Positions 17,979-56,914 of a DNA stretch of 57,841 nt are shown piece after piece; the first letter of the stretch is position 1, and each line of letters opens with the position of its first letter. Both the position numbers and the translations under genes were made by a program. The stretch comes from a virus (Duplodnaviria; Caudoviricetes): positions 1 through 57,841 of the IMG/VR virus record IMGVR_UViG_3300023213_000324; one strand, written 5' to 3'. The notes beneath the pieces were generated by a model. The model saw nothing but the letters and a program-made list of their open reading frames with translations. It had not been told where the DNA came from and ran no database searches.

Positions 17979-20186
17979 GTGAAGATACTCGTTACTGGTG
18001 CTTCTGGTTTTATTGGCAGTGCCTTTGTCATTCGTTTACTGGGTACCACCCAGTATTCTGTTGTTGCACTTACTCGGTGGACTGAAAAGAAGAACTACGC
18101 TAGACTACACGGTCCAGTTCGTGGAACTATTGTCAAGAAGGCTGAAGATGATGGTAGGTTGCGAGTGGTTTGTGGTGATTTACTACAGGACGTTTCCGGT
18201 CTCTGTGAAGGATGTGATGCTGTTATAAATTTTGCCGCGAAAACTTTTGTTGATCATTGCTATTCTGCCGATACAGAAGTTCTGACTAAACGTGGTTGGT
18301 TGTTTTGGCCTGAGGTAAAAGATGACGACATATTTGCTACACGCCATCCTAAAAGTGGATTGTTTCAATGGCAGAATGCTTTTGAAGTAGTTAGGGCTCC
18401 GTACGAAGGAGCTATGCTCAGATTTTCAGGAAAAAGTTTGGATTTGTTGGTAACACCAAATCATCGTATGATTGGTAGAAAAGTAGTTGATACTAGGAAC
18501 TGGGTTTTGGGGAAAGAAGAGATTTTGAAAGCTAGAGATGTAGCTTCTATGCCTGTTTGTCATAGAGGAGTACCTTTTAGATTACCATCTGTTGTTTCTG
18601 GCTGGAATGGTAAGAAGGTAGATTCTACAATCTATTTGAGTCTTTTGGATGATTTTGGAGTTAAGTATAGTCGTAAATCGTATTCTTTGCAGCTTAGAGA
18701 TTGGGTGGCTTTTTTGGGCTTATTTATTGCTGAGGGGTTTGTCGCTGGGACTTTAAGAAAAGAGAAGACAAATCGCCAGAAAAAGCCTTTGTTTGTTAGA
18801 GCTATAGCAGCCTCTTCTAGCGAAGAGAAGACAATCCCAGTAGCTAAAGGTCATTATTCTGTTTCTATTTGCCAATCATTTTCTAGTCGGCATATTACAA
18901 AGATAAGAGCTTTGTTGAAAAGGTTACCGTGGAGGTTTAGTTTCCAAAAAAATAGCTTTACTACTTCGAACAAAGTCTTATATTCAAATCTTTCTGTTCT
19001 TGGAAATTCTTATACAAAAAGAGTCCCACAATGGTTAAAAGAATTACCTACTGAATATTTGGAAGAGTTTGTTAAGTGGGCTTGTATGGGTGATGGTTGG
19101 GTTGGGAGCAGGAAAAGTGGGCGCTCATATTCTTATTCTACAGTTTGTCGTGGTTTGTCTGAAGATATGTTAGAGATTTTTCAGAAGTTGGGGATGGCAG
19201 CCAGCCTGGGTGTAAGCTCTGTGCCGTTGAAAGTTAGGCGTTTTGTTGGGAAGGGTTTATCAGATATAGCTCCATTGTATCAAGTTCGGGGTAGATCGAA
19301 GATGGTAGTAGCGATTTCTAAAGCTTGTGAAGAACAATACAAAGGAGTAGTTTATTGTGCAGAAGTTCCGAATGGTAGCTTGTTTATAAGGACTAAAAGA
19401 AGGAATAGTTACTATCCAGTATGGTGTGGAAACTCGATAAGAGACCCTTGGCCATTTATCAATACCAATGTCGTAGGAACGTACAGGATTCTCGAAGACG
19501 CTAGAAAACAAGGAGTCAAATATTTCATTCAAGTCTCGACGGATGAAGTTTACGGTGCGATACTCGATGGTGCCTACAGTGAAGATTCTAGAATCAATCC
19601 TACGAACCCGTATGCTGCTTCGAAGGCCGGTGCCGATGCTTTGGTTATATCGTATGCGCATACGTTCGGGATGTGGACGGCTGTAACTAGAACTGAGAAC
19701 AACTATGGGCCGTTTCAGCATCCGCAGAAGGTGTTTCCGACTTTTGTGGGTAAGGCACTTAGAGGCGAGAAACTTCCTGTTTATGGTGATGGAAAACATC
19801 GGAGGCAATGGCTTTGGGTTGATGACCATGTTGACGCGATCCTCAAATTATTGTCTCGTGCCATAGAAGGTGAAATTCATTACGGTGACAAGATAAGTTC
19901 CGGGCAAGTGTTTCATGTTGCTGGTTCTCAAGAGTTGGAGAATTTGGAGCTTGCCAGAAAGGTTCTTGATGTCCTTGTCGCAAAGAAGAGCATTCCTTCT
20001 TATGGAGACTATGACAGTTGGATAGAGATGATTCCTGATCATAATATTCGTCCGGGTCATGATAGAAGGTATGCTTTGGTTTGCGACAAGATGCAAAGTT
20101 TGGGTTGGTCGCCTAAAGTTTCTTTGCAGGAGGGAATAGAAAGAGCTGTGGCGTGGTATGCCGAAAACAGGTGGTGGCTTTCTTGA
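17979..20186 (+). CDS. rmlB: dTDP-glucose 4,6-dehydratase containing an intein
   Basis: TGASGFIG, STDEVYG, PYAASKAGAD, NNYGPFQHPQK, RPGHDRRYA. Confidence 0.92.
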   Translation: MKILVTGASGFIGSAFVIRLLGTTQYSVVALTRWTEKKNYARLHGPVRGTIVKKAEDDGRLRVVCGDLLQDVSGLCEGCDAVINFAAKTFVDHCYSADTEVLTKRGWLFWPEVKDDDIFATRHPKSGLFQWQNAFEVVRAPYEGAMLRFSGKSLDLLVTPNHRMIGRKVVDTRNWVLGKEEILKARDVASMPVCHRGVPFRLPSVVSGWNGKKVDSTIYLSLLDDFGVKYSRKSYSLQLRDWVAFLGLFIAEGFVAGTLRKEKTNRQKKPLFVRAIAASSSEEKTIPVAKGHYSVSICQSFSSRHITKIRALLKRLPWRFSFQKNSFTTSNKVLYSNLSVLGNSYTKRVPQWLKELPTEYLEEFVKWACMGDGWVGSRKSGRSYSYSTVCRGLSEDMLEIFQKLGMAASLGVSSVPLKVRRFVGKGLSDIAPLYQVRGRSKMVVAISKACEEQYKGVVYCAEVPNGSLFIRTKRRNSYYPVWCGNSIRDPWPFINTNVVGTYRILEDARKQGVKYFIQVSTDEVYGAILDGAYSEDSRINPTNPYAASKAGADALVISYAHTFGMWTAVTRTENNYGPFQHPQKVFPTFVGKALRGEKLPVYGDGKHRRQWLWVDDHVDAILKLLSRAIEGEIHYGDKISSGQVFHVAGSQELENLELARKVLDVLVAKKSIPSYGDYDSWIEMIPDHNIRPGHDRRYALVCDKMQSLGWSPKVSLQEGIERAVAWYAENRWWLS
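18258..19433 (+). mobile_element. Intein with LAGLIDADG homing endonuclease in RmlB (392 aa)
   Basis: N-junction VDH|CYSADTEVLTKRGW; block B VTPNHRM; FLGLFIAEG and MGDG motifs; C-junction WCGN|S. Confidence 0.9.
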
Positions 20187-28288: not shown

Positions 28289-29599
28289 GTGGCAATCTAT
28301 AGCGAAGTAACTAGATGTAGATGCTGTAGTAACGCTCTGGACGAAGTGTGGGATGGTGGTGAACAGTATGTTGTTCGGTTTCCTAAACTTGAAGAGAACC
28401 GCGAGGATATGCCTAGAGTTCCACTTGTTTTGATGGTTTGTAGTGCTTGTGGTTTAGTTCAGTTGAAACATTCTGTAGATTCTGATGCAATGTTTCATAC
28501 TTTCTGGTACAGGAGTGGTACGAATGAAATGATGCGTGTTGCTTTGCGTGATGTTGTTGAGAAGTCGATGCGGTATGTTGACTTACAAGAAGGAGATATC
28601 GTTGTAGATATTGGATGCAACGATGGGACTTTGTTTCAGTACTATGGTGACAAGAAAGTTCGTAAGATAGGTTTCGATCCGGCAAAAAATATACAGAGCC
28701 CGGGTATGCAAAGAGGTGGTTGGGAATTCATTTGCGACTATTTCAATGCCGGTACCTATCGCAGCTATCTGCATAGAAACAATGTTTTTAAAAAACTAAA
28801 GCCTGAAAAGTTTAAGCCAGCAAAGTTGATTACCGCTTGTGCTATGTTTTATGATTTGGAGAATCCCAAAGAATTCTTGCGTCAGGTAGCAAACATACTT
28901 GATCCGAATGGGGTGTTTGTCGTTCAGATGAATTATCTCGGGACGATGCTTAAGAATAGATGTATAGACAATGTCAGTCATGAACACTTGTGCTACTATT
29001 CGTTGCGTTCGTTTGTGCGTTTGCTTGCTGATACGAGTCTTAGCGTCTTTGCTGCTGAGTTAAATGATGTCAATGGTGGTAGTATTAGAATCTATCTTTC
29101 GTTGAAGAGTAAAGAAGCTCGTGGCGATGGTAGCGCACATAAAATTGTTTCTGATGAAATATCCGAGTTGGATGCTCTTCTGTCATGCTTCCCCACTATG
29201 GTGAAATGCTTGACGGTTGATATACATAGAAAGTTGTACGAACTTTCTCATAAGGAAACCATCTATGCTTATGGTGCTTCCACTAGAGGAACGTCTCTGC
29301 TTCAGTTGCTTGGCGATGTGTCGTCAATGATACAGGCTGTGGCTGAGCGTGATCCATCCAAGTATGGTCGTATGATGGTTGGTAGTTGGATTCCTATTGT
29401 AAGTGAAGAAGACGCTAGGAAGAAGGCTACCGTATTTTTTGTGTTACCGTATCATTTCTTGCCCACTATCCTAAAGCGAGAAAAAGAGTGGATGAAAAAT
29501 GGAGGTAAGCTTTTTGTTCCTTTGCCTAATCCGAGATTGATTAGCTGGAGAGATGTTATGATGAATCCCACTACCGGTGAGTTGTCTGTTAGGAGCTAA
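28289..29599 (+). CDS. NDP-hexose C-methyltransferase (Zn-binding)
   Basis: CRCC...CSACGLVQL, DIGCNDGTL, HEHLCYYS, NGGSIR, YGASTRG. Confidence 0.88.
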   Translation: MAIYSEVTRCRCCSNALDEVWDGGEQYVVRFPKLEENREDMPRVPLVLMVCSACGLVQLKHSVDSDAMFHTFWYRSGTNEMMRVALRDVVEKSMRYVDLQEGDIVVDIGCNDGTLFQYYGDKKVRKIGFDPAKNIQSPGMQRGGWEFICDYFNAGTYRSYLHRNNVFKKLKPEKFKPAKLITACAMFYDLENPKEFLRQVANILDPNGVFVVQMNYLGTMLKNRCIDNVSHEHLCYYSLRSFVRLLADTSLSVFAAELNDVNGGSIRIYLSLKSKEARGDGSAHKIVSDEISELDALLSCFPTMVKCLTVDIHRKLYELSHKETIYAYGASTRGTSLLQLLGDVSSMIQAVAERDPSKYGRMMVGSWIPIVSEEDARKKATVFFVLPYHFLPTILKREKEWMKNGGKLFVPLPNPRLISWRDVMMNPTTGELSVRS

Positions 29600-29605
29600 A
29601 CTAGA

Positions 29606-30595
29606 ATGAAGACTGCATTGATAACTGGAGTTCTTGGTCAGGATGGTAGTTACTTGGCTGAGTATTTGTTGGGAAATGGGTATACTGTTTTTGGCCTGAC
29701 GAGAAGAGACCCACAGACTTCTGCCAATGTAACTAGTGAGTCATATCATCTGATGCATCAGATTGAATTTTTGTATGGTGATCTACGCGATGCTTCTTCT
29801 CTAGAGTCAGCCATCTGGAAGTCAAAGCCTGATGAGATTTACAATTTTGCCGGGCAAGTTTTCGTTCCCGTAAGTTGGTCAAGGCCTGATTTGACTTTCG
29901 ATGTAAACGTTGGTGGGCTGGCTAGAATACTGGAGATTATCTTTCGTATAAAACCAGATACAAGAGTGTATCAGGCTAGTTCGTCGGAGATGTATGGTAA
30001 TCATGGTGGTTGTGCTGATGAGTCTACTCCGTTTTCTCCGAACTCGCCTTATGGTGCTTCGAAATTATCCGCACATCTGCTTTGCGATGTGTACAGGAAA
30101 GCTGGGTTATTTGTCGCTGCTGGAATTTGTTTCAATCATGAATCCCCCCGTCGTGGTTCTGAAATGGTGACACAAAAGATTGCAAAGCATGTCGCGCGAT
30201 GGGTTCTTGGCGATAAAGATAAGATAGTACTTGGCAACATGGAAGCTCAGAGGGATTGGGGATATGCGAAAGATTATGTTGTTGCTATGTATCAGATGCT
30301 CCAGAATGACAATCCTGTTGACTATGTAATTGGTACGGGTGAGTGCCACAGCGTCGAGGAGTTTCTACAAGAAACCATTTCTGCCGCTGGCCTTTCCTTT
30401 TCTGATTTTTCTGACAAGATTATCAGTGACGAGAGGTTGTCTAGGAAAAACGACATAAAGAAGTTGAAAGCGAACCCATTACTGATTCACACGCAGCTGG
30501 GGTGGAAATCTAAGACATCTTTTAGTCAGTTGGTTAAAATTATGGTTGATTCAGAAGTGGATAGGCTTCGTAGAAAGATGTCCATTGGAAGCTGA
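29606..30595 (+). CDS. gmd: GDP-mannose 4,6-dehydratase
   Basis: ALITGVLGQDGSYLAE, QASSSEMYG, SPYGASK, FNHESPRRG, RDWGYAKDYV. Confidence 0.93.
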   Translation: MKTALITGVLGQDGSYLAEYLLGNGYTVFGLTRRDPQTSANVTSESYHLMHQIEFLYGDLRDASSLESAIWKSKPDEIYNFAGQVFVPVSWSRPDLTFDVNVGGLARILEIIFRIKPDTRVYQASSSEMYGNHGGCADESTPFSPNSPYGASKLSAHLLCDVYRKAGLFVAAGICFNHESPRRGSEMVTQKIAKHVARWVLGDKDKIVLGNMEAQRDWGYAKDYVVAMYQMLQNDNPVDYVIGTGECHSVEEFLQETISAAGLSFSDFSDKIISDERLSRKNDIKKLKANPLLIHTQLGWKSKTSFSQLVKIMVDSEVDRLRRKMSIGS

Positions 30596-36217: not shown

Positions 36218-36915
36218 CACACCCACAGACGGACATCGTCATACCTGTGCATGGTCGAAGAGATTTGCTAGAACCTCTTGTCGAAGGGATTTTTAAGCAT
36301 ACGCAGAATTTTAGATTAATTCTCGTCGATGATATGTCTGATGTAGAGACAACGGCTTACATGCTTGGTATACTACAGAGGCAGTCGATTGCTTTGTACG
36401 TTAGAACGGGCCAACAGAAGTGGTTTACTAGAGCTAGTAATTTGGGGTTGAGGTTGGTACGGACGCAAAAAACCGTACTTCTGAATTCTGATTGTGTCGT
36501 TGATGTTGGCTGGTTACAAGAGTTGTATGATGTTTGGGATGATGGAATTGCTAAAGGGTTACGGGTCGGTCTTGTCGGGTCGGTCTTGTCAGGTGAAGAG
36601 TTGCGTCGTTGGGCTGAATACAATGAGCCTGGATATGTTACAGGTCATTGTATACTGCTTGACATGGCTATCATTTCAGAAGTAGCCAATAGAAGGGGTA
36701 CGCCTGGATGGTATCTCGATGAAACGAGGCACGATATGTTGCATATCAATTCCGACAGGTTTCTGTCGTATGACATTAACCGGATGGGGTATGCTACGAT
36801 TGCAGCATTCAAATCTGCGGTTGGTCATTACGGAGGACAGTCGTGGGGTTATAACTTAGGACGACTAGCTTCTGTTAAAATTGGTGATGCCGAGAAAGGA
36901 GAAATTTCTGGTTAG
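36214..36915 (+). CDS. GT2 glycosyltransferase
   Basis: DIVIPVH, LILVDDMS, FTRASNLG, LLNSD. Confidence 0.88.
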   Translation: MTHPQTDIVIPVHGRRDLLEPLVEGIFKHTQNFRLILVDDMSDVETTAYMLGILQRQSIALYVRTGQQKWFTRASNLGLRLVRTQKTVLLNSDCVVDVGWLQELYDVWDDGIAKGLRVGLVGSVLSGEELRRWAEYNEPGYVTGHCILLDMAIISEVANRRGTPGWYLDETRHDMLHINSDRFLSYDINRMGYATIAAFKSAVGHYGGQSWGYNLGRLASVKIGDAEKGEISG

Positions 36916-37056
36916 TCGTTATGTATGTTAGTATCGTAATACATGAATGAATTTGTTAAGTGGGAGTGTATCGCGTGGCTCGAATGAATTGACTGGTAGG
37001 ATAGTTTCGAAGTCTGTGAATGACTTAGTTTAGACGAGAGTGTACCGAAGGTCGCG
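36910..37056 (+). ncRNA. TIGR-like dual-repeat guide array 2 (~4 units)
   Basis: gtatcg-taatacatg-aatgaatttg-ttaagtggg-agtgtatcg-cgtggctcg-aatgaattg-actggtagg-atagtttcg-aagtctgtg-aatgactta-gtttagacg-agagtgtaccg-aaggtcgcg. Confidence 0.8.
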
Positions 37057-37065
37057 AGGGTTACA

Positions 37066-37785
37066 ATGGTTGAAAAAAAATCAAATGCTTTGTGGCCACA
37101 GATAATCAGATCTTTCTGTCTGGTTGCTTTTACTGCTGCTGCTGTCTCGTTGCTTCTCGAAGCACGTCTTGTTCTGAAAGACAGTCGTATTTCCATTCAA
37201 ACGACTTTTTCCGGTATCAATACTGCTATGACGAATTTCAATGACGCTGCGATTGCCACAAAAGAAAGGTCTGATGCTGAGCTTAGGGAGGTTCAAAAGA
37301 CGACTGTTGATTTGAAACATTTGATCGGTGCGACTGATTTGAATCTGAATGGGAGGCCGGGACATCCGGGTATGTTGCCTCGTTTGAATTACAGCGTCAA
37401 CGATGTTTTGGTTCCACAGGTAGCTACGAATTTGAAAGATTTGGATAAGCTTGAATTACAAGTCGCACAGAAATTTGTCCAAACCATGGACGAGCTGCAA
37501 CCTACTCTGAAGAATCTGGCTGATGGTAGTGCTTCTTTTGCCCAGATTGCTGGAGATGAGCACATCCGTGAACTGATTATAAACGCTGCTGTGATGAGTG
37601 GTGATGCAGAGAAAGCAGTAAAGGATTTGGAAGGAGTAACGGCTAATCTTGACACGGCCTCGCAGCTGCTATTACAAAGACTACGTGATGCCTTGAAGCC
37701 TGTACCATTTATACGGGCGATTGCCGAAAAGCTTCTTGGGGTGACGTCTCAGGCTGTCCAGATTTACTACGGCACCCACAAGTAG
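37066..37785 (+). CDS. Membrane-anchored coiled-coil protein
   Basis: N-terminal TM and long helical region. Confidence 0.65.
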   Translation: MVEKKSNALWPQIIRSFCLVAFTAAAVSLLLEARLVLKDSRISIQTTFSGINTAMTNFNDAAIATKERSDAELREVQKTTVDLKHLIGATDLNLNGRPGHPGMLPRLNYSVNDVLVPQVATNLKDLDKLELQVAQKFVQTMDELQPTLKNLADGSASFAQIAGDEHIRELIINAAVMSGDAEKAVKDLEGVTANLDTASQLLLQRLRDALKPVPFIRAIAEKLLGVTSQAVQIYYGTHK

Positions 37786-44824: not shown

Positions 44825-47743
44825 ATGGCTACAGCCCCTGCGGGCTTTGTAAGCAAAACGAAGACGCTAAACAAACCAGACCCAGTATTGTGCCGAGAGC
44901 AGTTGGAAGCTCTTAACATACTCTGGAAAGCCTGGGGCCCTGAAGTCTTTTGTCGATTTTTTGTTAGTATCCTTCTAAAGAAACCTGTCCAGAGAACTAT
45001 TTCCGGAAAAATCGTAAATACCAGACTTGTTCCGTATACGTACCACCGTATCAACAAAGATATGGAGAAGACGTTTACGAAGCGGAATATCACTCTGAAG
45101 CCTCGTCAGATTGGCGCTACGACGTACCACATCATCCGTCGTTTGTATCTGCCAACAATACTCGAGATGGGGACTTCGTCGTTGTTGATTTCTCAGACGA
45201 AGTCTTACGGCTTGCAACATTTCGCTATTCTGTCGCGTGCCCATAAACATTTCATGCAGCATCTGCCGATGGGCATGTCTCATCTGAACGATATCGCTGA
45301 AGAGCTTCATAGGAATTTGTTACACACTCAGTATTCTCCACGACATGAGCTGGTGTTTGATTTTCTCGATAGTCGGATACTTGTCGATTGTCTTGGTCCA
45401 AATACTTTTGTACAGATGGGTGATGGTGAGTTGAAGAAAATATGTGAAGTTAAAGTAGGAGATTGGGTGTCGTCTTCTAAGGGCTACAAGACGAGAGTTA
45501 GTTGGGTTGGTTCGAAAGATGCTGAAGACCATCAATATAAAGGTCAGGCTTATAGAGTAGAAGTTAGACATCACACAGGTTTTGATGTAATTTGTAGTCC
45601 AAATCATAAGTTCTTGACTCAGCGAGGTTTGGTTAAGGCTAAAGATTTGTTAGTCGAAAAAGATTTTTTGGCTATACCCAAGAAGAAGTTTACTGGAATT
45701 GTTAAGTGTTTAAAATTAAATCAGCTACAACGTTTGCCTGGAAGTGGTAGTGGTTCTCAGCCAGTTAGGGTGAAAGAAGACTTTGAGCTTAATAGAGAAA
45801 CTGGTTTTGCTTGTGGTTTGTATTTGGCAGAAGGAACAATGAATGCGAATAGACCAATTGGTTTTGGATTTTGTCTAGCTGGAGAAAGTGAGATTGCCTT
45901 GTTTAAGAGGGCAGCTAAAGCATTTCGACCTTATCTGGTTGGTGTGAAAACTTATAGATATCATCGTGGGCCAAAGAAGATAATTTTCAGCTGTACTGGA
46001 AAGGTGTTTACTGAGTGGTTAAAACAGAATATTGGTTGCAAAAAAAACAAACATGTTCCTGACTGGATATGGGATTCGCCAAAAGATTTTGCTATCGGGT
46101 TTCTTGAAGGATGGCTTTGCGGAGATGGGGGAGTTGGTTGTAGAGGAAGAAGCGTAACAGGAGTTTCTATTCTTTCTCGTGTAGCAGTAGTTATGAGAGA
46201 TGTGGCTATAGCTCTTGGTCTTGGTGGAATCGGATTACTTTATCAGAAGTTAAGGCGCAGAGAAGTAGTTATGCCTGACGGACATATTGCTCGTATGTAT
46301 CCGAATAGGTTTGAAGTTAGAATAATTGGCGTTTCGATGGATAGGTTGATGTCGCTTGTAGGTGGTAAGAGGCTTAGTGGAAAGTATAGTTATAAGTCTT
46401 ATGTCTCTAAAAAGAAAGTTCAACCATCGCCAAAATATTGGTTTGAAGATGAACAGTTTGTTTATTTTAGGTTGAAATCAGTTTCGAAAACTTTTTGTAA
46501 GAAGTTTTGGGATTTGACGGTAGAGAACCCAGAACATTTGTACAGATTGCCATTTGCTGTAACGCACAATACTTCCGAGAATCCTGAGGTGGGTCAAGGG
46601 TTACCGGGTATTAGCCATCTTGTCTGTACGGAGATGTCGAGGTGGAAAGTCGGGCCACTCCATAGTCCTGAAGAGGCTATGGCCAACGTGAAAGAATCTG
46701 TTCACAGTGAAGGTACAGTTGACATTGAATGTACGGCTAATGGTATGGGTGGTTATTTCTTTGAAGAGTGGCAGAGAGCCAAAAACGGTGGCGAGTTCGT
46801 ACCGCATTTTTACCAGTGGTGGTTCATGGAGGAGTATGAAGAGCGAAATACGAAGCTGACCTATTCCGAGCTTGATGATAGAGAGAAAGAGTTAGTCAAG
46901 CAAGCCAATCTGACTTTGGGCCAATTGTCATGGCGAAGAGGAAAGGTAATCTCACTACGTCATAATTTTCCTGAAAAATATCCCGAGGATGACATGCTGT
47001 GCTTTTTGACGACAGGGTCTGGTTTCTTTGAGAGAGATATTTTGGCTAGAAAGAAACTGGAACTGATGAACCAGAAGCCTATTGAAGTTCATGGTAATGG
47101 TGATTATGTTGTTTACAAGCGCAGAGTGAAGGGCAGAAGGTATGTAATCGGTGCTGATTGTTGTGAAGGTAAAGAAGTATCAGAAGGTAATTCTGACTTT
47201 AATGCTGCAGTTGTTCTTGATGAAGAGACTGGTGAAGAGATGGCTGCCTATCGTTCAAAACTTCCACCTGAAGATTACGGTGTAGAGTTGGTTGATATAG
47301 CTAGAGAGTACAACAATGCCTTGCTTGGTATTGAGAGAAACAATCATGGTGGAACGGTGCTGTTGGTAGTTCAAAGGCAATGTATGTACGGGAACATTTA
47401 CTATCACAAGGAATGGTTCAGGGAGAGAAAGCAGGTAGTTGAAGTTGCTGGGTTCCCCACAAACCAACGTACACGACCAATCGCTCTGAATAAATGTGCC
47501 GCATGGGTCAGAGACGTTCCTGAGCTGATTCACGATACTACGTTTGTTGATGAAGCACTTGTTTTTGTGCGTGATAAGAAAACCGGGAAGCCACAAGCAC
47601 AAGCTGGCTGCCATGATGATACTGTAATGGCGAGGGCTGTGGCAACTTACATTCGTCTTGTAAAGTTGGGTTATCTCGACCCCATCGAATCCCCATCTGA
47701 AAAGTATGGTGAAACTGAGGCCGAAGAAGATAAGGCTGCCTAG
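44825..47743 (+). CDS. terL: Terminase large subunit containing an intein
   Basis: LKPRQIGATT Walker A, ECTANG motif III, IGAD...D.NA RNase H-like domain, ERNNHG, HDDTVMA. Confidence 0.93.
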   Translation: MATAPAGFVSKTKTLNKPDPVLCREQLEALNILWKAWGPEVFCRFFVSILLKKPVQRTISGKIVNTRLVPYTYHRINKDMEKTFTKRNITLKPRQIGATTYHIIRRLYLPTILEMGTSSLLISQTKSYGLQHFAILSRAHKHFMQHLPMGMSHLNDIAEELHRNLLHTQYSPRHELVFDFLDSRILVDCLGPNTFVQMGDGELKKICEVKVGDWVSSSKGYKTRVSWVGSKDAEDHQYKGQAYRVEVRHHTGFDVICSPNHKFLTQRGLVKAKDLLVEKDFLAIPKKKFTGIVKCLKLNQLQRLPGSGSGSQPVRVKEDFELNRETGFACGLYLAEGTMNANRPIGFGFCLAGESEIALFKRAAKAFRPYLVGVKTYRYHRGPKKIIFSCTGKVFTEWLKQNIGCKKNKHVPDWIWDSPKDFAIGFLEGWLCGDGGVGCRGRSVTGVSILSRVAVVMRDVAIALGLGGIGLLYQKLRRREVVMPDGHIARMYPNRFEVRIIGVSMDRLMSLVGGKRLSGKYSYKSYVSKKKVQPSPKYWFEDEQFVYFRLKSVSKTFCKKFWDLTVENPEHLYRLPFAVTHNTSENPEVGQGLPGISHLVCTEMSRWKVGPLHSPEEAMANVKESVHSEGTVDIECTANGMGGYFFEEWQRAKNGGEFVPHFYQWWFMEEYEERNTKLTYSELDDREKELVKQANLTLGQLSWRRGKVISLRHNFPEKYPEDDMLCFLTTGSGFFERDILARKKLELMNQKPIEVHGNGDYVVYKRRVKGRRYVIGADCCEGKEVSEGNSDFNAAVVLDEETGEEMAAYRSKLPPEDYGVELVDIAREYNNALLGIERNNHGGTVLLVVQRQCMYGNIYYHKEWFRERKQVVEVAGFPTNQRTRPIALNKCAAWVRDVPELIHDTTFVDEALVFVRDKKTGKPQAQAGCHDDTVMARAVATYIRLVKLGYLDPIESPSEKYGETEAEEDKAA
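45389..46570 (+). mobile_element. Intein with LAGLIDADG homing endonuclease in TerL (394 aa)
   Basis: N-junction LVD|CLGPNT; CSPNHKF; GLYLAEG and GWLCGDG; C-junction WDLTV...VTHN|T. Confidence 0.92.
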
Positions 47744-48142: not shown

Positions 48143-49156
48143 ATGTCGAATGAGAAAGAAGTGAAGAATCTAATCGATCCTGAGGCTTTGCCAATCGTCA
48201 GTTCTGGAACGCCGACAGTACAACACAAAGAAGATTTTGAAACTATCGCTCATAACGCTGGTGTGGGTATCGGCGGAGATGATTTGTATGAGCGTTACGG
48301 GAAGTTGGTTTATCTTTTTGACAACAGCGGGTCGATGGACAGCCGGATGCCGATGTCTGATAGTCCATCTTTGTATGAGTGGGATGCAGAGCTTTTGAAA
48401 AAGTTCCGTAAAGCCATGCAAGAGTATCTTGAAGCACAGAAAGATTGTGATGTTGATGAAGGAGAAGAAGATGAGTTCGATGACGTGCTTGATGCCGAGC
48501 CGCTCTTTGACTCCATTCCTTTTGACGATGAAGAACTCAAGCGTCTGATTGTTGATGCTGACCTTGCCGATGAGTTCAAAATCAAACTGCCGAAAACGTA
48601 TAACCCTTACGGCAGTTCCGGTAAGTCGAAGATTCAAGCTGTAAAAGATGCGGCTAGGGGGTTTGTCGAGAATCGATTCGAAAAGTATCCTGATGCCAAT
48701 GTCATGGTTTTTGGTTTTGCCGAATCCGCTTCTGTTTTTGCTCGAGGTGCTGGCAAAGAAGAAGTTCTGAACGGTGTTGAAAGTCTTGATGCTCAGGGCG
48801 GTAATACCAGAATCTTTACTGCCATGAGAACAGTGATTGGTGAGTTCAAGAAACGTCCGTCACAAGTTCGATGCCATCATGTTGTTTTGGTGACTGATGG
48901 GTTCGATAACGATTCAGATCTCATGACGGGTCATCTGTCAAATTTGCAAGAACTGGGAATCGTTGTTGATTTCATCTTTGTAAAGGGGCATGACGATTCA
49001 CAAGACGACAATCGTCTCTACAAAGAAAAGATTGACGCCATCAGGTTGGTTTGCGAAAAGACAGGCGGTGAGTATACCGAAGTCAATACCGTTGATGACT
49101 TCGAAACAAAGTTCCTTGCTGTTTCCAATCGACCAATGCTTCCTTGGAAGGGCTAG
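48143..49156 (+). CDS. von Willebrand factor A domain protein
   Basis: MIDAS DNSGSM...GGNT...LVTDG. Confidence 0.85.
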   Translation: MSNEKEVKNLIDPEALPIVSSGTPTVQHKEDFETIAHNAGVGIGGDDLYERYGKLVYLFDNSGSMDSRMPMSDSPSLYEWDAELLKKFRKAMQEYLEAQKDCDVDEGEEDEFDDVLDAEPLFDSIPFDDEELKRLIVDADLADEFKIKLPKTYNPYGSSGKSKIQAVKDAARGFVENRFEKYPDANVMVFGFAESASVFARGAGKEEVLNGVESLDAQGGNTRIFTAMRTVIGEFKKRPSQVRCHHVVLVTDGFDNDSDLMTGHLSNLQELGIVVDFIFVKGHDDSQDDNRLYKEKIDAIRLVCEKTGGEYTEVNTVDDFETKFLAVSNRPMLPWKG

Positions 49157-49160
49157 TTAG

Positions 49161-49171
49161 TTTTGTATAAT
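49161..49171 (+). promoter_or_regulatory. TTTTGTATAAT promoter-like motif
   Basis: Recurrent motif; upstream of small ORF and array 3. Confidence 0.55.
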
Positions 49172-49185
49172 AAGAGAGACTAGCT

Positions 49186-49384
49186 ATGACGCATACTTTC
49201 AAGAAGGGCGAACAGGTTCTGTGGCGGGAGTGGATTGGTGTAGTCCACTCCCTTAGACCTACAAAGGTGTATGTGTTGTTCTACGGTGGATGATGGCCGA
49301 ACTGTTACAGGAGGCCATTGGCACAAGCCGGAAGAACTTCTAAAGATGGAGGATTTGAAGAAGTACTTCCAATATGCCAATTAG
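49186..49384 (+). pseudogene. Small SH3/Tudor-like ORF apparently split by a 1-nt frameshift
   Basis: MTHTFKKGEQVLWREWIGVV...VLFY then +1 frame VDDGRTVTGGHWHKPEELLK...YAN*. Confidence 0.4.
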
Positions 49385-49584
49385 AGATTCGGCGCATGTG
49401 TGATGTATCGTTGGTGGTAGAAAGATTTGCTGATTTCGTTTGTTTCGTGTCAAGAGAAAGATTTGTGCTTTATGTTTGTTTCGTGTTATAAGAAAGATTC
49501 GTAGACTACGATTAAATGTCGCAACATGTGAAAGATTTGCGCATGCAGTGTTGTACCGAAAAACTTGTAAGACTGTGGAGGTAG
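49383..49584 (+). ncRNA. TIGR-like dual-repeat guide array 3 (~5 units)
   Basis: gtatcg-ttggtggtag-aaagatttg-ctgatttcg-tttgtttcg-tgtcaagag-aaagatttg-tgctttatg-tttgtttcg-tgttataag-aaagattcg-tagactacg; exact 36-nt period in the centre. Confidence 0.85.
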
Positions 49585-49587
49585 CAA

Positions 49588-50700
49588 ATGGCTAGAAGAA
49601 ATAGAACGTCGGCGCCACCAATCCCTAAACCGCCGAAGCCTCAGCGGCCACAAGGCAAGGCTTTACGGGAGCTGTATAAAGGTTTGGTGACGTTGTCTAC
49701 TTCAAATCGCATCAATTCTTTGGCTTCTGCATTGCAGTGGTTCGATTCTGCACAGGTGTGGATGTTGTCTAGAAACAAGGGCCAGCCTCTCGATCCGAAA
49801 ATCGTCAGAGCCATAGAAATTGCTGTAAAGAGTAGAAAGGTCGGGATATCAGCAACTATGGAGGGAGAGAAGGAAACCGCTTTCTTGATGTCCGTACGGA
49901 ACTATGAGAAAGCTTGTAGTATAGTCAAACCTGTTTCAGTAGACAAGTATTATACTGAGCTTGAAGCGAAGAAACAGAAACTCGAACAGCGCCAACAAGT
50001 TGCTGCGAATCAGTACGGAAACCTTTTATCTGAACTGGCTGTTGCTGGCGGTGGCGAAGTACGGATGCTTGTTTTCGATGGGCCCAAGACACGCCAGCTG
50101 GTGCCATCTTCGTTTGAGATTATCTACAATCGTGAAGGCGCCAAACAAGTTGTGGAAACGATAAAGCGTCAGGGTATGCTTTCTGCTTTCGTTGCCGAGC
50201 TCGATATGATGTCTCGTTGCTTGGCTTTCGAATCGAACGGTGTTGGTGGCTTTCAAGTCAACGCTGAGAAGTATATCGCTGCGCAGAGTCGTTTGATGAA
50301 GAACTTCGTCAAACATTATGGAACCATGCCGAACGCCAACCGTTTGGTACGGCCTGGCGCTACGGCTGAACATGGTTTAATACAACAGCCTCAGCCGGCA
50401 TCTACCCAGCCTAAGGCTCCTCGGCAGGGAGCGCCACAGCGGACGCCTATTCGTCGTAGTAGTGCTCCTAAAGTGGCTGGAAGGTATGATGCCGCCTCCA
50501 CTATGGCATTGCTTTACAATAAGCTGAGAGACGGGCATCTCCACAAAATAACCGATATCCTGCAGGGAGTTCCTGCTGCTGACCCAAAGGGTCGTTTGGT
50601 CAATCTCGGGAAAGATGTCAAGCGATTCAATTGGGGTACTTTCGAGTGGTTGGGTGACGGTGTGAGAATGATACTGACACAAGAACAGGCGGCTGTATGA
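49588..50700 (+). CDS. Hypothetical protein with C-terminal putative winged-helix-like domain
   Basis: GGAGG RBS; C-terminus similar to a domain in 56090-56914. Confidence 0.75.
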   Translation: MARRNRTSAPPIPKPPKPQRPQGKALRELYKGLVTLSTSNRINSLASALQWFDSAQVWMLSRNKGQPLDPKIVRAIEIAVKSRKVGISATMEGEKETAFLMSVRNYEKACSIVKPVSVDKYYTELEAKKQKLEQRQQVAANQYGNLLSELAVAGGGEVRMLVFDGPKTRQLVPSSFEIIYNREGAKQVVETIKRQGMLSAFVAELDMMSRCLAFESNGVGGFQVNAEKYIAAQSRLMKNFVKHYGTMPNANRLVRPGATAEHGLIQQPQPASTQPKAPRQGAPQRTPIRRSSAPKVAGRYDAASTMALLYNKLRDGHLHKITDILQGVPAADPKGRLVNLGKDVKRFNWGTFEWLGDGVRMILTQEQAAV

Positions 50701-50957
50701 GTCTCAGACTTTTCAGGTTGTCAAATAAAGCCCGCATGGGTTGTTGGGTGTTTGCTGAGAATGAAGAAGAAGCTAGAGAAATTTTCAAACTCGATGGGCG
50801 GGTTAAGTCTCTAGCAAACATAACTTTTGTACAAGATCAGACTGACTTTTACACACCCACCACAAATCTTTCTGAAGTGACCGAGAAGGGTCCTGCTTGC
50901 ATGAGGATTCCGGGACGTATTTGGGAAGTTTCTTCTCTCTGGAGAAGGGCTGTATGA
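50697..50957 (+). CDS. Hypothetical protein
   Basis: ATGA overlap; VFAENEEEARE motif. Confidence 0.65.
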   Translation: MSLRLFRLSNKARMGCWVFAENEEEAREIFKLDGRVKSLANITFVQDQTDFYTPTTNLSEVTEKGPACMRIPGRIWEVSSLWRRAV

Positions 50958-51326: not shown

Positions 51327-52265
51327 ATGAGAAGCACTACAGTTGCACCGGTTGAAGGTTTCGATCCGGTAAGTAAGTTGACAGCTGACATCAAGAAAGC
51401 GGCTATTACCTTGACCGACAAGGAAGCAAGATTTCTTGTCGACGGGTATTACTCGTTGCAAGGGTACAGAGTCGCATCAGGGAACCAGATTATCGCTCTG
51501 AGGAAATCAAACGAACCGAATGCTGTGTTGCGTTGGTTCAATGAAAACGCCGAGACTCTTGAAATGCAGATGAGGCGTGCTCTTGACGCTTACTCCGAAA
51601 CGAAAGTAGTCGGTCGTTGGTCAAAGTCCATTTGTGGAATAGGGCCAGTGATTTCTGCCGGCTTGCTTGCGCATATTGATATGTATCCTTGGCGTTGTCA
51701 GGTAGCAAAACTCGATCCGAAAGAAGACGCTTGTTCAGAGAAGAAGCCTCACGAAAAAATGGGTTGTGGTAAGCAACCCATTGCAACTGCCGGCCAGATT
51801 TGGCGATTTGCCGGTCTTGATCCTACTGATGTTTGGAACAAGGGTGAGAAACGGCCTTGGAATGCCGCCCTCAAAACTCTCTGTTGGAAGCTGGGAGAGT
51901 CGTTTGTAAAAGTCCACAACAATCCAAATGACTTTTACGGAAAATTGTATACCGCTCGTAAAGAGTGGGAGACTGAGAAGAACAAACGTAAGGAGTATGC
52001 CCACCTAGCTGCTGACAAACTGGCAAAGTTCAAAATCGGAAAGAAGACTGAAGCGTACAAAGCCTATATCGAAGGGTTTCTTCCTGATGGTAGAATCCAT
52101 GAGCGTGCCAAACGATACGCCGTGAAGATTTTTCTATCTCACTGGTTCACGGTTGCCTATGAATCGACTTTCAACAAGCCGGCTCCGACGCCATATGTCA
52201 TTGCCTATCAGGGGCATACGCATATGATTCAAGTCCCGAACTGGCCGATGGTTGAGGAGAAGTAG
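51327..52265 (+). CDS. TasA-like Nop-domain protein (IS110 C-terminal-like, no nuclease domain)
   Basis: RFLVDGYYSLQGYRVASGNQI coil; ICGIGPVISAGLLAHID; TAGQIWRFAGLDP; RPWNAALKTLCW; HERAKRYAVKIFLSH; no DEDD RuvC or HNH; dual-repeat array directly downstream. Confidence 0.8.
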   Translation: MRSTTVAPVEGFDPVSKLTADIKKAAITLTDKEARFLVDGYYSLQGYRVASGNQIIALRKSNEPNAVLRWFNENAETLEMQMRRALDAYSETKVVGRWSKSICGIGPVISAGLLAHIDMYPWRCQVAKLDPKEDACSEKKPHEKMGCGKQPIATAGQIWRFAGLDPTDVWNKGEKRPWNAALKTLCWKLGESFVKVHNNPNDFYGKLYTARKEWETEKNKRKEYAHLAADKLAKFKIGKKTEAYKAYIEGFLPDGRIHERAKRYAVKIFLSHWFTVAYESTFNKPAPTPYVIAYQGHTHMIQVPNWPMVEEK

Positions 52266-52269
52266 AAAA

Positions 52270-52397
52270 CATCATTCGGACGATGTGTGAGTACCGGATA
52301 GTAGAAGTGAATTGTTACTAGGGACTTTGTATCGTTGACATAGAATGAGTTGCAGTTTCAGTTAGTTTCGTTGAAATGGAATGAACAGAGAGGCTAG
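52270..52397 (+). ncRNA. TIGR-like dual-repeat guide array 4 (~3.5 units), adjacent to the TasA-like gene
   Basis: gtaccg-gatagtaga-agtgaattg-ttactaggg-actttgtatcg-ttgacatag-aatgagttg-cagtttcag-ttagtttcg-ttgaaatgg-aatgaacag-agaggctag. Confidence 0.8.
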
Positions 52398-53255
52398 ATG
52401 AAAAGAGCCTTATTCAAGTGCTGTAATCTGATAGGAGACGCTCTGTTTGCGTCCCCTATTCTCCAGCAGTGGCACGAGAAGAATCCTGATTTCGAAATAG
52501 ATCTCTTGACGCTACCTGATCACGTTGCTGAAGTGTATAGACATTTTGGTGTTCCTTTGAACGTATTGTTTGACGCTGACAGTTCAAAGTATGACTTCTA
52601 TCACAATTTCGACATCGGGAAAGCATTTAGCTTGGGTGATGCTAAGAAGCTTCATGCTGTAGAGGCTGTAGGACAGATTCTGTTTGGCCCGGATTACATC
52701 GCTCCAACGTTGAAGCCAATCTTCATTCCCGATGAGGAAGAGCATGAGAAAGATTTGATTCTCATTAGCCCGTTTTCTAGGAGTTGTTCTTCGAACCAGA
52801 AAGATAGCTTAGGTAGGAGTAATCCACCTAACAAAATGATTCAGTGGCCACACTGGCTACAGATAGTAACTCTGCTTAGAGCTTATGGGTCGATTGGTGT
52901 TTTGGGTGGAAAAGATGACCACTGTCCTTTGCCTATCGCCGAAGACGAGTACTATCTGAATCTATCGTTAAATCATGTAGCCTTGTTGCTACGCGATTGT
53001 AGGATGTTTGTTACCATCGATAACGGTATGGCCCATTTAGCTTCGTCTCAGACGACGCCAACGATAGAATTCTATCCTGCCTGCTTGGCGGTTAGGTGGG
53101 CTGCACCGTTGGGCAATCCAAATCTGTACATAGCTCAAGTAGATCCAGCAAACATTTCCGTACCGCAGGCACTCTATGTTGTTAGAAGTGGAATTGAAGC
53201 TTTATTTTTGAGGAGGAAGAAAGATGAAAAAATCTGGCAAGAAGAAGTCCGCTAA
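52398..53255 (+). CDS. GT9-like glycosyltransferase
   Basis: LIGDALFASP; FVTIDNGMAHLAS. Confidence 0.85.
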   Translation: MKRALFKCCNLIGDALFASPILQQWHEKNPDFEIDLLTLPDHVAEVYRHFGVPLNVLFDADSSKYDFYHNFDIGKAFSLGDAKKLHAVEAVGQILFGPDYIAPTLKPIFIPDEEEHEKDLILISPFSRSCSSNQKDSLGRSNPPNKMIQWPHWLQIVTLLRAYGSIGVLGGKDDHCPLPIAEDEYYLNLSLNHVALLLRDCRMFVTIDNGMAHLASSQTTPTIEFYPACLAVRWAAPLGNPNLYIAQVDPANISVPQALYVVRSGIEALFLRRKKDEKIWQEEVR

Positions 53256-53751
53256 AGTGTCGTCTAGAAAAGCGTCAAAACAGAAACAGTCTTCGACGAA
53301 GTTTGCTCAGGTTGGTAGTCCAAAAGAGGTAAAACAAAAAGGTGGCTATCTGGTTCAGATTGAGAACACAACACGTGATGTAAATGGTATTGTGACTTCG
53401 TCTGAGTTTGTCCAATATGTTGGTTCGAAGAGACAGCCGTTGACTTTACAGAAGGCAGAAAATGTACGTGATGGTTTGAAGGCTATAGGTAGTGGTGGTC
53501 GCATACTAAATGTTCCTGAAATGACGGAACATGAGAAGTGGGAATCTCTTGCGACACTGGAAGCCGCTAGTAAAGCTGAGAATATGAGCCAAAACAAGGC
53601 TACTGAGTCAGTCGAGCCTGGCTCCCAAACCCCCCCCCCTCTACGGAGCCGGCCCAACCCCTTAGCCAAGAAAAAAGTACTTGACATCAAAATAGGGGTA
53701 TCCTATAATTATTGCTGTACGGGATACTGCCAATCTAGGGTTCCTGTATAG
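53224..53751 (+). CDS. Basic hypothetical protein (3' end uncertain, runs through promoter P2)
   Basis: GAGGAGG RBS; K/S-rich N-terminus. Confidence 0.55.
   Translation: MKKSGKKKSAKVSSRKASKQKQSSTKFAQVGSPKEVKQKGGYLVQIENTTRDVNGIVTSSEFVQYVGSKRQPLTLQKAENVRDGLKAIGSGGRILNVPEMTEHEKWESLATLEAASKAENMSQNKATESVEPGSQTPPPLRSRPNPLAKKKVLDIKIGVSYNYCCTGYCQSRVPV
53681..53727 (+). promoter_or_regulatory. Consensus sigma70 promoter P2 with TGTACGGGATAC leader
   Basis: TTGACA 53681-86, 17 nt, TATAAT 53704-09; near-identical to P1. Confidence 0.85.
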
Positions 53752-55729: not shown

Positions 55730-56109
55730 GCTTTACTCAAGTCATGAACGATGTGGTAACTCAGTTAAAAGCGTTAGACCCAAGAATTTTGTCGCGAGAA
55801 CAGAGGAAGTTGCTACAGAATCTTGATGAGACACTCAAAAAATTTGTAGCTTCCCAGACGCCGTTCTATGTCGGCTCGGTTACTGTTGAAGAGGTAATAC
55901 GAGCTGTACGTCCGGAAGCTTTAGAGAAGTGGGATAGGTGGAGTTATAAAATATGCCCACCAATATCCCTTGACGATTCTTCTTATCTGCGCGTTGTGTT
56001 GACAAACAAAGATGGTAGCTACATGACGGTTATCCTGAACCTGCTCGGTGCTCAAGTTGCACTTGAGAATAGAAAAAAGGGGGTGGCCGATGTCCCTGCT
56101 ATCTCATGA
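55726..56109 (+). CDS. Hypothetical protein
   Basis: GGAGG RBS, GTGA overlap. Confidence 0.65.
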   Translation: MSFTQVMNDVVTQLKALDPRILSREQRKLLQNLDETLKKFVASQTPFYVGSVTVEEVIRAVRPEALEKWDRWSYKICPPISLDDSSYLRVVLTNKDGSYMTVILNLLGAQVALENRKKGVADVPAIS

Positions 56110-56914
56110 AGAAAGAGAGAAGCTGAAGCAGGAAGGCTTGTACGTAAAAGAGAAATGTGACAGTTGTGGCAAACCAATTCTGACGCCTATGAAGGCTGTG
56201 AAGGATGGCAAAGATCTTTGTACGGGATTGGGTAGTTGCTACGAACAGATGAAAGCGTCGGGCCAATGGAAAGTTGGGATTCCTAGGAAACAAAAATCAA
56301 ATCAGGAGGAAGCTGGAAGTATGGCTACTACTAAGAAAGAAAGCAGTGGTTCTGGTGGTGCTGAAAAAGTTGGAGGACACTATCGTAAAGGTTCAACGCT
56401 AGCGAACTTTTACGAAGTGCTTTCTGACGAGAAGAAGCATTCCGTCAAGCAGATTCTGAAAACTGCCGGCAAGGACGCCAAGAATCCAATGTTCCTGCTC
56501 AAGGCTTTGAAGAAAGATGGTGAGAAGAAATTCAAAGAGTGGGGCATCGCTATCAACGATGATGAGGTTCAGATGAAGATGGGAAAGTCGGCCGCCGCAG
56601 CTGCTGCCAAGGCTCCGGCCAAGCCTTCCCCCTCCACACCCTCAGCTGGCCAAAAGAATGCGCCAAAACAGCCGCCAGCCACTGCCAAAACAGGCTCTAA
56701 ACAGGCCCCCCAGCCGGTTAGCAAGAGCCTGGCCGCTGTTGTCTCCCTGCTCCGCAAGACCTTGAAGTCGGCCGGCACTTGGACCAAAAACAAGCTGGTC
56801 GAAGAGCTGAAGACGAAAGCTGGTATCGATCAGAAAGAAACGCTGACTGCCTTGAGCCGTGAAATCAATCTTGGCGGAATTATCCAGAAGAAAGGAGTAT
56901 TCTCTCTGGCCTAA
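56090..56914 (+). CDS. Basic K/A/P-rich putative DNA-binding protein with N-terminal Zn finger
   Basis: CDSCGK...C....C; AAAAAAKAPAKP linker; two helical domains. Confidence 0.7.
   Translation: MSLLSHEEREKLKQEGLYVKEKCDSCGKPILTPMKAVKDGKDLCTGLGSCYEQMKASGQWKVGIPRKQKSNQEEAGSMATTKKESSGSGGAEKVGGHYRKGSTLANFYEVLSDEKKHSVKQILKTAGKDAKNPMFLLKALKKDGEKKFKEWGIAINDDEVQMKMGKSAAAAAAKAPAKPSPSTPSAGQKNAPKQPPATAKTGSKQAPQPVSKSLAAVVSLLRKTLKSAGTWTKNKLVEELKTKAGIDQKETLTALSREINLGGIIQKKGVFSLA

Follow-up and report, generated by a model that had tools for sequence, protein, structure and literature searches.

TIGR-Tas systems were described only in 2025 (Faure 2025, Science, PMC12045711). In dual-repeat arrays, edge and loop repeats of 8–12 nt alternate and separate spacers of ∼9 nt, the tigRNAs are ∼36 nt long, and a Tas protein with a Nop domain is encoded adjoining the array (PMC12045711). 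Nuclease-less proteins of the TasA type, when guided to a gene, have been reported to repress transcription (Xu 2026 preprint). The main TIGR papers give the way in which arrays emerge, expand and acquire spacers as unknown and state the natural targets and the biological role as open, and one of them proposes that recombination may be limited by the shortness of the repeats. Term searches in the text of these main papers and in the library turned up no account of unit duplication, shared spacers or dispersed arrays.

Here we analysed a 57,841-nt IMG/VR record (the window, meaning the whole stretch of DNA) with a completeness estimate of 48% and a GC content of 44.6%. Nearly all of its long ORFs lie on the + strand, and a terminase-like gene is located at 44825–47743. 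The window is about half of the genome of an uncultured phage with a dual-repeat TIGR-Tas system of the TasA type, which is a system of known kind: two alternating repeats with spacers, a Nop-type Tas protein beside an array and common box motifs were all found. Like the TasA-subtype systems of FpTasA and MbTasA, it has two alternating short repeats and two short spacers in a unit of ∼36 nt, a Tas protein of Nop-type fold encoded beside an array, no nuclease domain, a phage as carrier and a Y/H pair at the C-terminal processing position. In contrast to described dual-repeat systems, it has four arrays spread over 50 kb and up to 49 kb from tas, and these arrays abut start codons without a terminator, have more degenerate repeats and consist of units of 36–40 nt. 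The spacers are 8 nt long, as reported for SpTIGR, and not 9 nt.

Arrays and Tas protein of the phage fragment

By reading and parsing the sequence, we found four arrays on the + strand with 24 complete units in total; the initial annotation had counted three, leaving out the one at 52269–52388. [quoted passage not shown] The variable parts had initially been given as 9 nt, but the ninth base is the conserved first G of the following repeat (20/24 after one repeat type and 23/24 after the other). Both repeat types start with G in most copies; G also predominates at positions 5 (19/24 and 22/24) and 10 (23/24 in each), and position 9 is occupied by C or T. Such a common skeleton is what would be expected for a symmetric Tas dimer, and box C and box D bases can putatively be assigned within it. 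The annotated arrangement in paired short guide spacers is the published TIGR architecture. Predicted array RNA showed no excess of secondary structure (z +0.73), and the lack of a stable fold fits the dual-repeat rather than the stem-loop type.

Array 1 (2412–2892, + strand) contains 13 edge-type and 13 loop-type repeats, forming 12 complete units and a leading partial one with a period of 36–40 nt, and runs into the start of an ORF for a LuxR/GerE-type HTH regulator (2885–3361, + strand) directly 3′ of it. The listed ATG of this ORF, at 2885, is inside the last edge repeat, and a second in-frame ATG follows at 2903, after a further GAATGA motif; either may be the true start. Array 2 (36909–37065, + strand) has four units; its first, degenerate edge repeat overlaps the stop codon of a GT2 gene, and its last, also degenerate, contains an SD-like GAGGG just 5′ of the ATG at 37066. 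Array 3 (49382–49576, + strand) has five units, opens with an edge-type repeat (49382–49391) and closes with a degenerate edge (49567–49576), directly followed by an SD-like GGAGG and the ATG at 49588. The ORF beginning there, 12 nt after the array (49588–50700, + strand), encodes 370 aa of unassigned function. Array 4 (52269–52388, + strand), with three units, comes directly 3′ of the tas stop codon; 9 nt separate its end from the ATG at 52398, which belongs to a GT9-like glycosyltransferase gene (52398–53255). A GT9-like ORF is also found near tas in L035, a metagenome contig. Units measure 36–38 nt in arrays 2–4 and 36–40 nt in array 1, and the repeat sequences vary.

The exact 36-nt period that had been noticed in the centre of array 3 was recovered by TRF (49419–49499; period 36, 2.2 copies, 84% matches). 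Here TTTGTTTCG occurs at 49439 and 49475, and AAAGATTTG at 49421 and 49457. Across the window, these words have 10 and 11 copies, respectively, against ∼1 expected, as many being reached in 0/100 shuffles, and the copies lie in intergenic clusters. A loop variant ending in GTACCG is present in the last unit of array 2 (37038–37047), of array 3 (49549–49558) and of an array in another phage fragment, G001, as well as in the first unit of array 4 (52287–52296). Variants with GTACCA stand at the ends of sub-arrays in the related phage L085, and these variants may be a boundary signal.

The tas gene (51327–52265, + strand) encodes a 312-aa protein with a Nop/IS110-like RNA-binding fold and coiled-coil helices. 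It matches a 346-aa ORF of L035 (phmmer, E 1.2e-81), TIGR-TasR in PDB entry 9mty (E 5.7e-12) and TasH (E 0.004). An AlphaFold model built from a 30-sequence alignment reached a pLDDT of 89.9. In a Foldseek search of the PDB with this model, each of the top ten matches listed was a TasH or TasR chain (E 2.6e-8 to 2.1e-6), with IS110-type recombinases ranking after them (E ∼2e-3). The alignment with TasR spans only TasR residues 125–326, the Nop part, and ∼44 residues of the window protein precede it. Pfam gave no nuclease family for the protein at E up to 0.1, neither HNH nor RuvC. Because the alignment covers the Nop part only and Pfam finds no nuclease domain, we assign the protein to the TasA type. 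The Pfam Nop family itself (PF01798) did not match the window Tas and was found neither in G000 nor in G001.

Residues Y290 (Y in 26 of the 30 aligned homologues) and H297 (H in 30/30) align with the processing residues Y289 and H296 of SpTasH. The Tas family is large, with 5,653 proteins at E ≤ 0.001, some of which match Pfam PF02371, and the closest homologues (P0006 and P0007) are 75–76% identical to the window protein. Around residues ∼120–153 lies an insertion with three cysteines (C123, C136 and C147), a pattern that recurs in the family consensus; it may be a metal-binding knuckle without counterpart in TasR and TasH. Three other ORFs considered as Tas candidates, at 411–1301 and 1660–2391 beside array 1 and at 56048–56914, had no match in the PDB. 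Among the viral contigs, no close relative was confirmed for the ORF at 49588–50700, nor for Tas as a single query.

Some proteins of the window are recorded here in their own right. A 735-aa protein (17979–20186) matches phrog_540, annotated as nucleotide-sugar epimerase (E 1e-81), as well as a phrog resembling thymidylate synthase. This protein, among the few that the window and G001 have in common (33% identity), may be a DNA base-modification enzyme. A domain of ∼70 aa, of unassigned function, occurs in the C-terminal part of the 49588–50700 product, in the ORF at 56048–56914 and in one G001 ORF (53342–53665 of the reversed copy). The last two share 53% identity, and one of the carriers of the domain is the gene directly 3′ of array 3. 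A tRNA scan of the whole window found none, and blastn with 1600–3400 and 49000–50800 against the phage collection returned no nucleotide match.

The best matches in both sequence and fold are SpTasH of Salicola phage CGphi29 (PDB 9w03, 9w04 and 21kl) and TaTasR (9mty). Identity in the structural alignments is only 18–22%, however, and the window Tas differs from both in having no HNH or RuvC domain and in carrying the Cys-containing insertion at ∼120–153. Other systems share some features. IS110/IS1111 recombinases with their bridge (seek) RNAs and box C/D sRNPs have a related RNA-binding fold and a two-part guide logic, whereas the window has no DEDD or serine recombinase domain and no single structured bridge RNA. 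In box C/D sRNAs, the C (RUGAUGA) and D (CUGA) boxes form K-turns; the window lacks K-turn C/D boxes, and a scan of its whole length gave no Rfam family at gathering score, which led us to reject a box C/D sRNA. CRISPR arrays are likewise tandem arrays of repeats and guide spacers, with one repeat of 25–36 nt and spacers of similar size. In contrast, the window arrays have two kinds of 10-nt repeats and 8-nt spacers working in pairs, with no cas genes, and a CRISPR array was discarded as well.

To place the arrays among relatives, we used array motif scans and a Tas profile search. The motif scans yielded nine stretches in viral contigs, of which one is a real array (G001), 16 in metagenome contigs, again with one real array (L035), and four in genome contigs, none of them an array. 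L035 carries eight units of the same repeat family directly 3′ of its 346-aa ORF, which matches 9mty (E 1.8e-11) and TasH (E 9.7e-7). G001 is a distantly related phage fragment of 59.6 kb (60% complete) with only two or three proteins in common with the window. Its array (∼28950–29820, − strand of the record; 870 nt) has ∼24 repeat units, 21 of them parsed as regular, belongs to the same repeat family as the window arrays and abuts a 97-aa ORF. In the available part of G001 no Tas homologue was found, and Pfam recognised only a helicase among the ORFs around the array. The Tas profile search gave 80 viral loci, including three related phages, L085, L097 and L098, whose arrays have 47–49 units of the same repeat family in a strict 36-nt period. 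These three come from one metagenome assembly set and so do not count as independent cases, and their repeats may contain assembly errors. The window arrays are more degenerate than those of L085. At 5040–5140 of L085, and at the same place in L097 and L098, the array is split by ∼100 nt of non-array sequence with two copies of a ∼24-nt element, which may hold an internal promoter or terminator between sub-arrays.

These relatives also bear on whether the repeats are guide arrays at all. They might instead be arrayed DNA sites to which a regulator binds, or a tandem series of ECF-sigma-like promoters (TGTAAC, 17 nt, CGT) for the LuxR-type gene and other genes. The loop repeat and its fixed spacing do resemble the −35/−10 spacing of the ECF-type consensus, a LuxR-type HTH gene stands 3′ of array 1, and all arrays lie directly upstream of genes. 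However, the gene of a genuine Tas homologue lies between arrays 3 and 4, 1.7 kb from the former and 4 nt from the latter, the same repeat family is found directly 3′ of tas in L035, L044 and L085–L098 with terminators at the end, and the skeleton common to both repeat types is that expected for a symmetric Tas dimer. We consider regulator sites or promoters hardly credible for these reasons. Once Tas had been found, the ECF-promoter idea and that of hairpins or covariation between neighbouring repeats were dropped.

Unit boundaries and pairing of spacers

Published TIGR arrays have a truncated edge repeat at either end (Faure 2025, PMC12045711). The final repeat is of the edge type (GAAWGA), often with a degenerate 3′ half, in L035, L044, L085 and G001 and in all four window arrays; directly 3′ of it, L035 and L044 have a rho-independent terminator. 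L035, G001 and window arrays 2, 3 and 4 also start on an edge-type repeat, whereas L085 starts on a loop-type one. Together with the conservation of spacer pairs in three related phage arrays, these array ends indicate that GAAWGAWTYG is probably the edge repeat and marks the unit boundary. The unit register of the initial annotation, and with it the choice of the spacer called A, was therefore probably off by half a unit.

Spacer pairs were followed unit by unit between L085, L097 and L098 in six directional comparisons, three of which are given here as conserved and re-paired units. From L085 to L097, 43 pairs were conserved and 3 re-paired (n = 47) when GAAWGA was taken as edge, against 40 and 7 (n = 49) with the loop repeat as edge. 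From L085 to L098 the corresponding counts were 34 and 6 (n = 47) against 28 and 15 (n = 49), and from L097 to L098 they were 38 and 4 (n = 46) against 31 and 14 (n = 48). Across all six comparisons, the GAAWGA-edge register left 1–6 re-pairings of 46–47, and in this register the arrays of the three phages differ by insertion or deletion of whole units. Besides the start of L085 and the residual re-pairings, one count runs against it: within L098, similar unit pairs (≥12/16) number 6 in the other register versus 2, an excess made up mainly of A/T-rich low-complexity spacers and tandem copies. The loop-type repeat was also tried as the edge and rejected, as the frequent A/B re-pairing that it seemed to reveal in the three phages mostly dissolves in the other register.

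The initial annotation had proposed that half-guides are reused modularly, one fixed half recognising a common motif and a variable half conferring locus specificity; on this reading, the combinations would come about by exchange at the repeat that separates the two spacers. The check suggested for it, a look for A/B shuffling in homologous arrays, was carried out on these three phages: a few re-pairings persist in either register, and with GAAWGA as edge the pairs are mostly kept, with little reassortment. Re-pairings are two to three times commoner with the loop repeat as edge than in the GAAWGA-edge register, where those left are mostly matches with one mismatch between A-rich spacers or the result of a deletion between similar units. 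Such a comparison alone indicates which repeat probably bounds the inherited unit and hence which two spacers would work together; without the register step, arguments from shared spacers mislead. In the related arrays, moreover, the most similar unit pairs (12–13/16) are direct neighbours, that is, tandem duplicates, indicating that whole-unit duplication occurs in this family.

A spacer common to arrays 1 and 3

As initially annotated, TGTCAAGAG occurs exactly twice in the window, at 2608–2616 and 49448–49456, both on the + strand, and the 9-mers that come after it in the next spacer position (2627–2635 and 49466–49474) differ. As a bare 9-mer this is weak evidence, since at least two copies arose in 18/100 shuffles. 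Both copies stand in the same array register, between TTGTWWC(G/A) and GAAAGA(A)TTTG motifs. With GAAWGA as edge, the favoured register, both units have the shared 8-mer as their spacer B. The unit in array 3 (49420–49465, + strand, counted to the end of the next edge) consists of edge 49420–49429, spacer A 49430–49437, loop 49438–49447 and spacer B 49448–49455, with the next edge at 49456–49465. Its paralogue in array 1 (2580–2626, + strand) consists of edge 2580–2589, spacer A 2590–2597, loop 2598–2607 and spacer B 2608–2615, with the next edge at 2616–2626.

The partner spacers in these units (2590–2597 and 49430–49437) are identical at 5/8 positions, which with 8/8 for spacer B gives 13/16 variable positions shared by the whole units. 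Among the 276 unit pairs of the window, the next best pair reaches 9/16 (column-shuffle P 0.0023, 3000 trials), and among 1176 pairs including G001 and L035 the next best is 10/16 (P 0.011). Chance identity of two unrelated spacers could account for a bare 9-mer found twice, as the shuffles show, and even one identical pair among 5565 spacer pairs has a probability of ∼0.13. In view of the 13/16 agreement against 9–10 for the next best pairs (P 0.002–0.011), and of the same rare edge variant directly 3′ of both copies, chance is nevertheless a very remote explanation.

The repeats of the two units differ at 2/10 positions in the upstream edge and 4/10 in the loop, with one indel in the downstream edge. 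Repeats and spacers have thus diverged alike, by ∼20–30%, which fits an old copy of a whole unit followed by drift. The units next to the two paralogues agree at 7/16 and 4/16 (hand count) and are not clearly related, suggesting that only one unit was copied or that the rest has since been replaced. We conclude that one whole unit was probably copied from one array to the other, presumably long ago, and that both copies then drifted. On this account, 3/16 spacer positions and 6/20 repeat positions (upstream edge and loop) have changed since the copying.

The three spacer differences are confined to spacer A, a split that is not significant on 16 positions. For an intact 8/8 at 20–30% divergence, we estimate a probability of ∼0.06–0.17, and selection on spacer B is also compatible with it. 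The paralogous units could, for instance, be kept by selection because they address two related targets with one common half-site, such as a pair of promoters or a repeated element present twice, B being constrained as A tracks its site. One of the differences is at spacer position 4, which by our mapping is in or next to the seed, so that the two guides would not be interchangeable, and TasA proteins have been reported as RNA-guided repressors (Xu 2026 preprint). However, no such targets were found in the 57.8-kb window, and with the 0-versus-3 split short of significance we regard selection as an unlikely cause of the shared spacer.

The modular reading can draw on the same 8-mer, which is identical in both arrays while the spacer 3′ of it agrees at only 3/8 (hand count), so that the units match at 11/16 with the loop repeat as edge. 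In the register supported by array ends and homologues, however, the partners are similar (5/8). A second identical 8-mer links array 4 (52371–52378) with the G001 array (30282 of the reversed copy), amid unrelated neighbours. Two identical pairs were thus counted among 5565 spacer pairs against 0.13–0.14 expected (P 0.006–0.009), in a test done, like the first self-target search, in the loop-as-edge register since superseded. Spacer identities of 7/8 and 6/8 are nonetheless at chance level, and the 8-mer of array 4 and G001 resembles the start of the edge repeat and so may derive from a repeat. Read in reverse complement, the shared spacer includes TTGACA, which equals the sigma-70 −35 consensus and could be a common motif targeted by a repressor. 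The likeness was noticed post hoc, and the hexamer shows no enrichment in the window (52 found versus 47 expected). TTGACA also occurs in forward sense in a spacer of array 4, at 52335–52340.

With partners agreeing at 5/8 and whole units at 13/16 in the favoured register, modular reuse of half-guides is quite improbable, and a combinatorial half-guide code is not supported here. Duplication of a whole unit followed by drift had been named beforehand as the outcome that would contradict modular reuse, and the comparison matches that outcome. Exchange between arrays, which had been offered as the alternative, stands in part: a spacer shared beyond chance speaks for some exchange or copying, and not for a modular fixed half with different partners. 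The window and the related arrays offer examples of whole-unit duplication with subsequent drift, both in tandem and between arrays.

Arrays ahead of genes and the predicted use of their guides

In two genomes of related phages (96% and 100% complete), all array matches lie in one ∼2-kb cluster adjoining tas. In contrast, three of the window arrays are placed 49 kb, 14 kb and 1.7 kb 5′ of tas and the fourth 4 nt 3′ of it; each runs up to the SD sequence and start codon of a protein gene. No + strand terminator was found between any of the four arrays and the next gene. Because the arrays are degenerate and lack the terminator reported for TIGR arrays, some of them may be decaying. Gene-abutting arrays may be working guide sources expressed with different operons or, alternatively, decaying copies. 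Annotation confined to the neighbourhood of tas would miss the arrays 14 and 49 kb away.

By analogy with described systems, each array is predicted to be transcribed, and here it seems to form the 5′ leader of the gene that follows. Upstream of array 3 by ∼210 nt, a sigma-70-like promoter match (49144–49171, + strand; 10/12) is a candidate for the start of the array transcript by its consensus. A Tas dimer would then cut the transcript within the edge repeats into tigRNAs of ∼36 nt, with Y290 and H297, at the position of the TasH processing dyad, as candidate processing residues. Within a tigRNA, spacer A would pair with one strand and spacer B with the other, at adjacent 8-bp half-sites, and TasA would bind the guided DNA, most likely repressing transcription.

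The predicted 16-bp target reads as spacer A and then spacer B in reverse complement, a geometry derived from the reported 8-nt 3′ overhangs and cleavage rule (Faure 2025, PMC12045711). A search of the 57.8-kb window with 22 units gave two hits with up to two mismatches in the predicted geometry, versus 3, 6 and 2 in control geometries, and none with up to one mismatch. The other two units gave 0 and 1 hits at two mismatches.

A tentative and somewhat doubtful reading of this layout is that arrays left the tas locus and became 5′ leaders of at least four genes or operons and that, separately, they grew by whole-unit duplication and drift. The genes possibly led in this way are those for the LuxR-type regulator, a 239-aa coiled-coil or membrane-like protein, the 370-aa protein and the glycosyltransferase. 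If this is true, distinct sets of tigRNAs would be released only upon transcription of each operon, a single TasA repressor would receive a stage-specific guide repertoire, and processing of mRNA 5′ ends would be coupled to guide production. The arrays may also spread by edge-to-edge duplication of units, in tandem and between arrays, followed by point drift and not by acquisition of foreign DNA, and such duplication would bear on how TIGR arrays expand.
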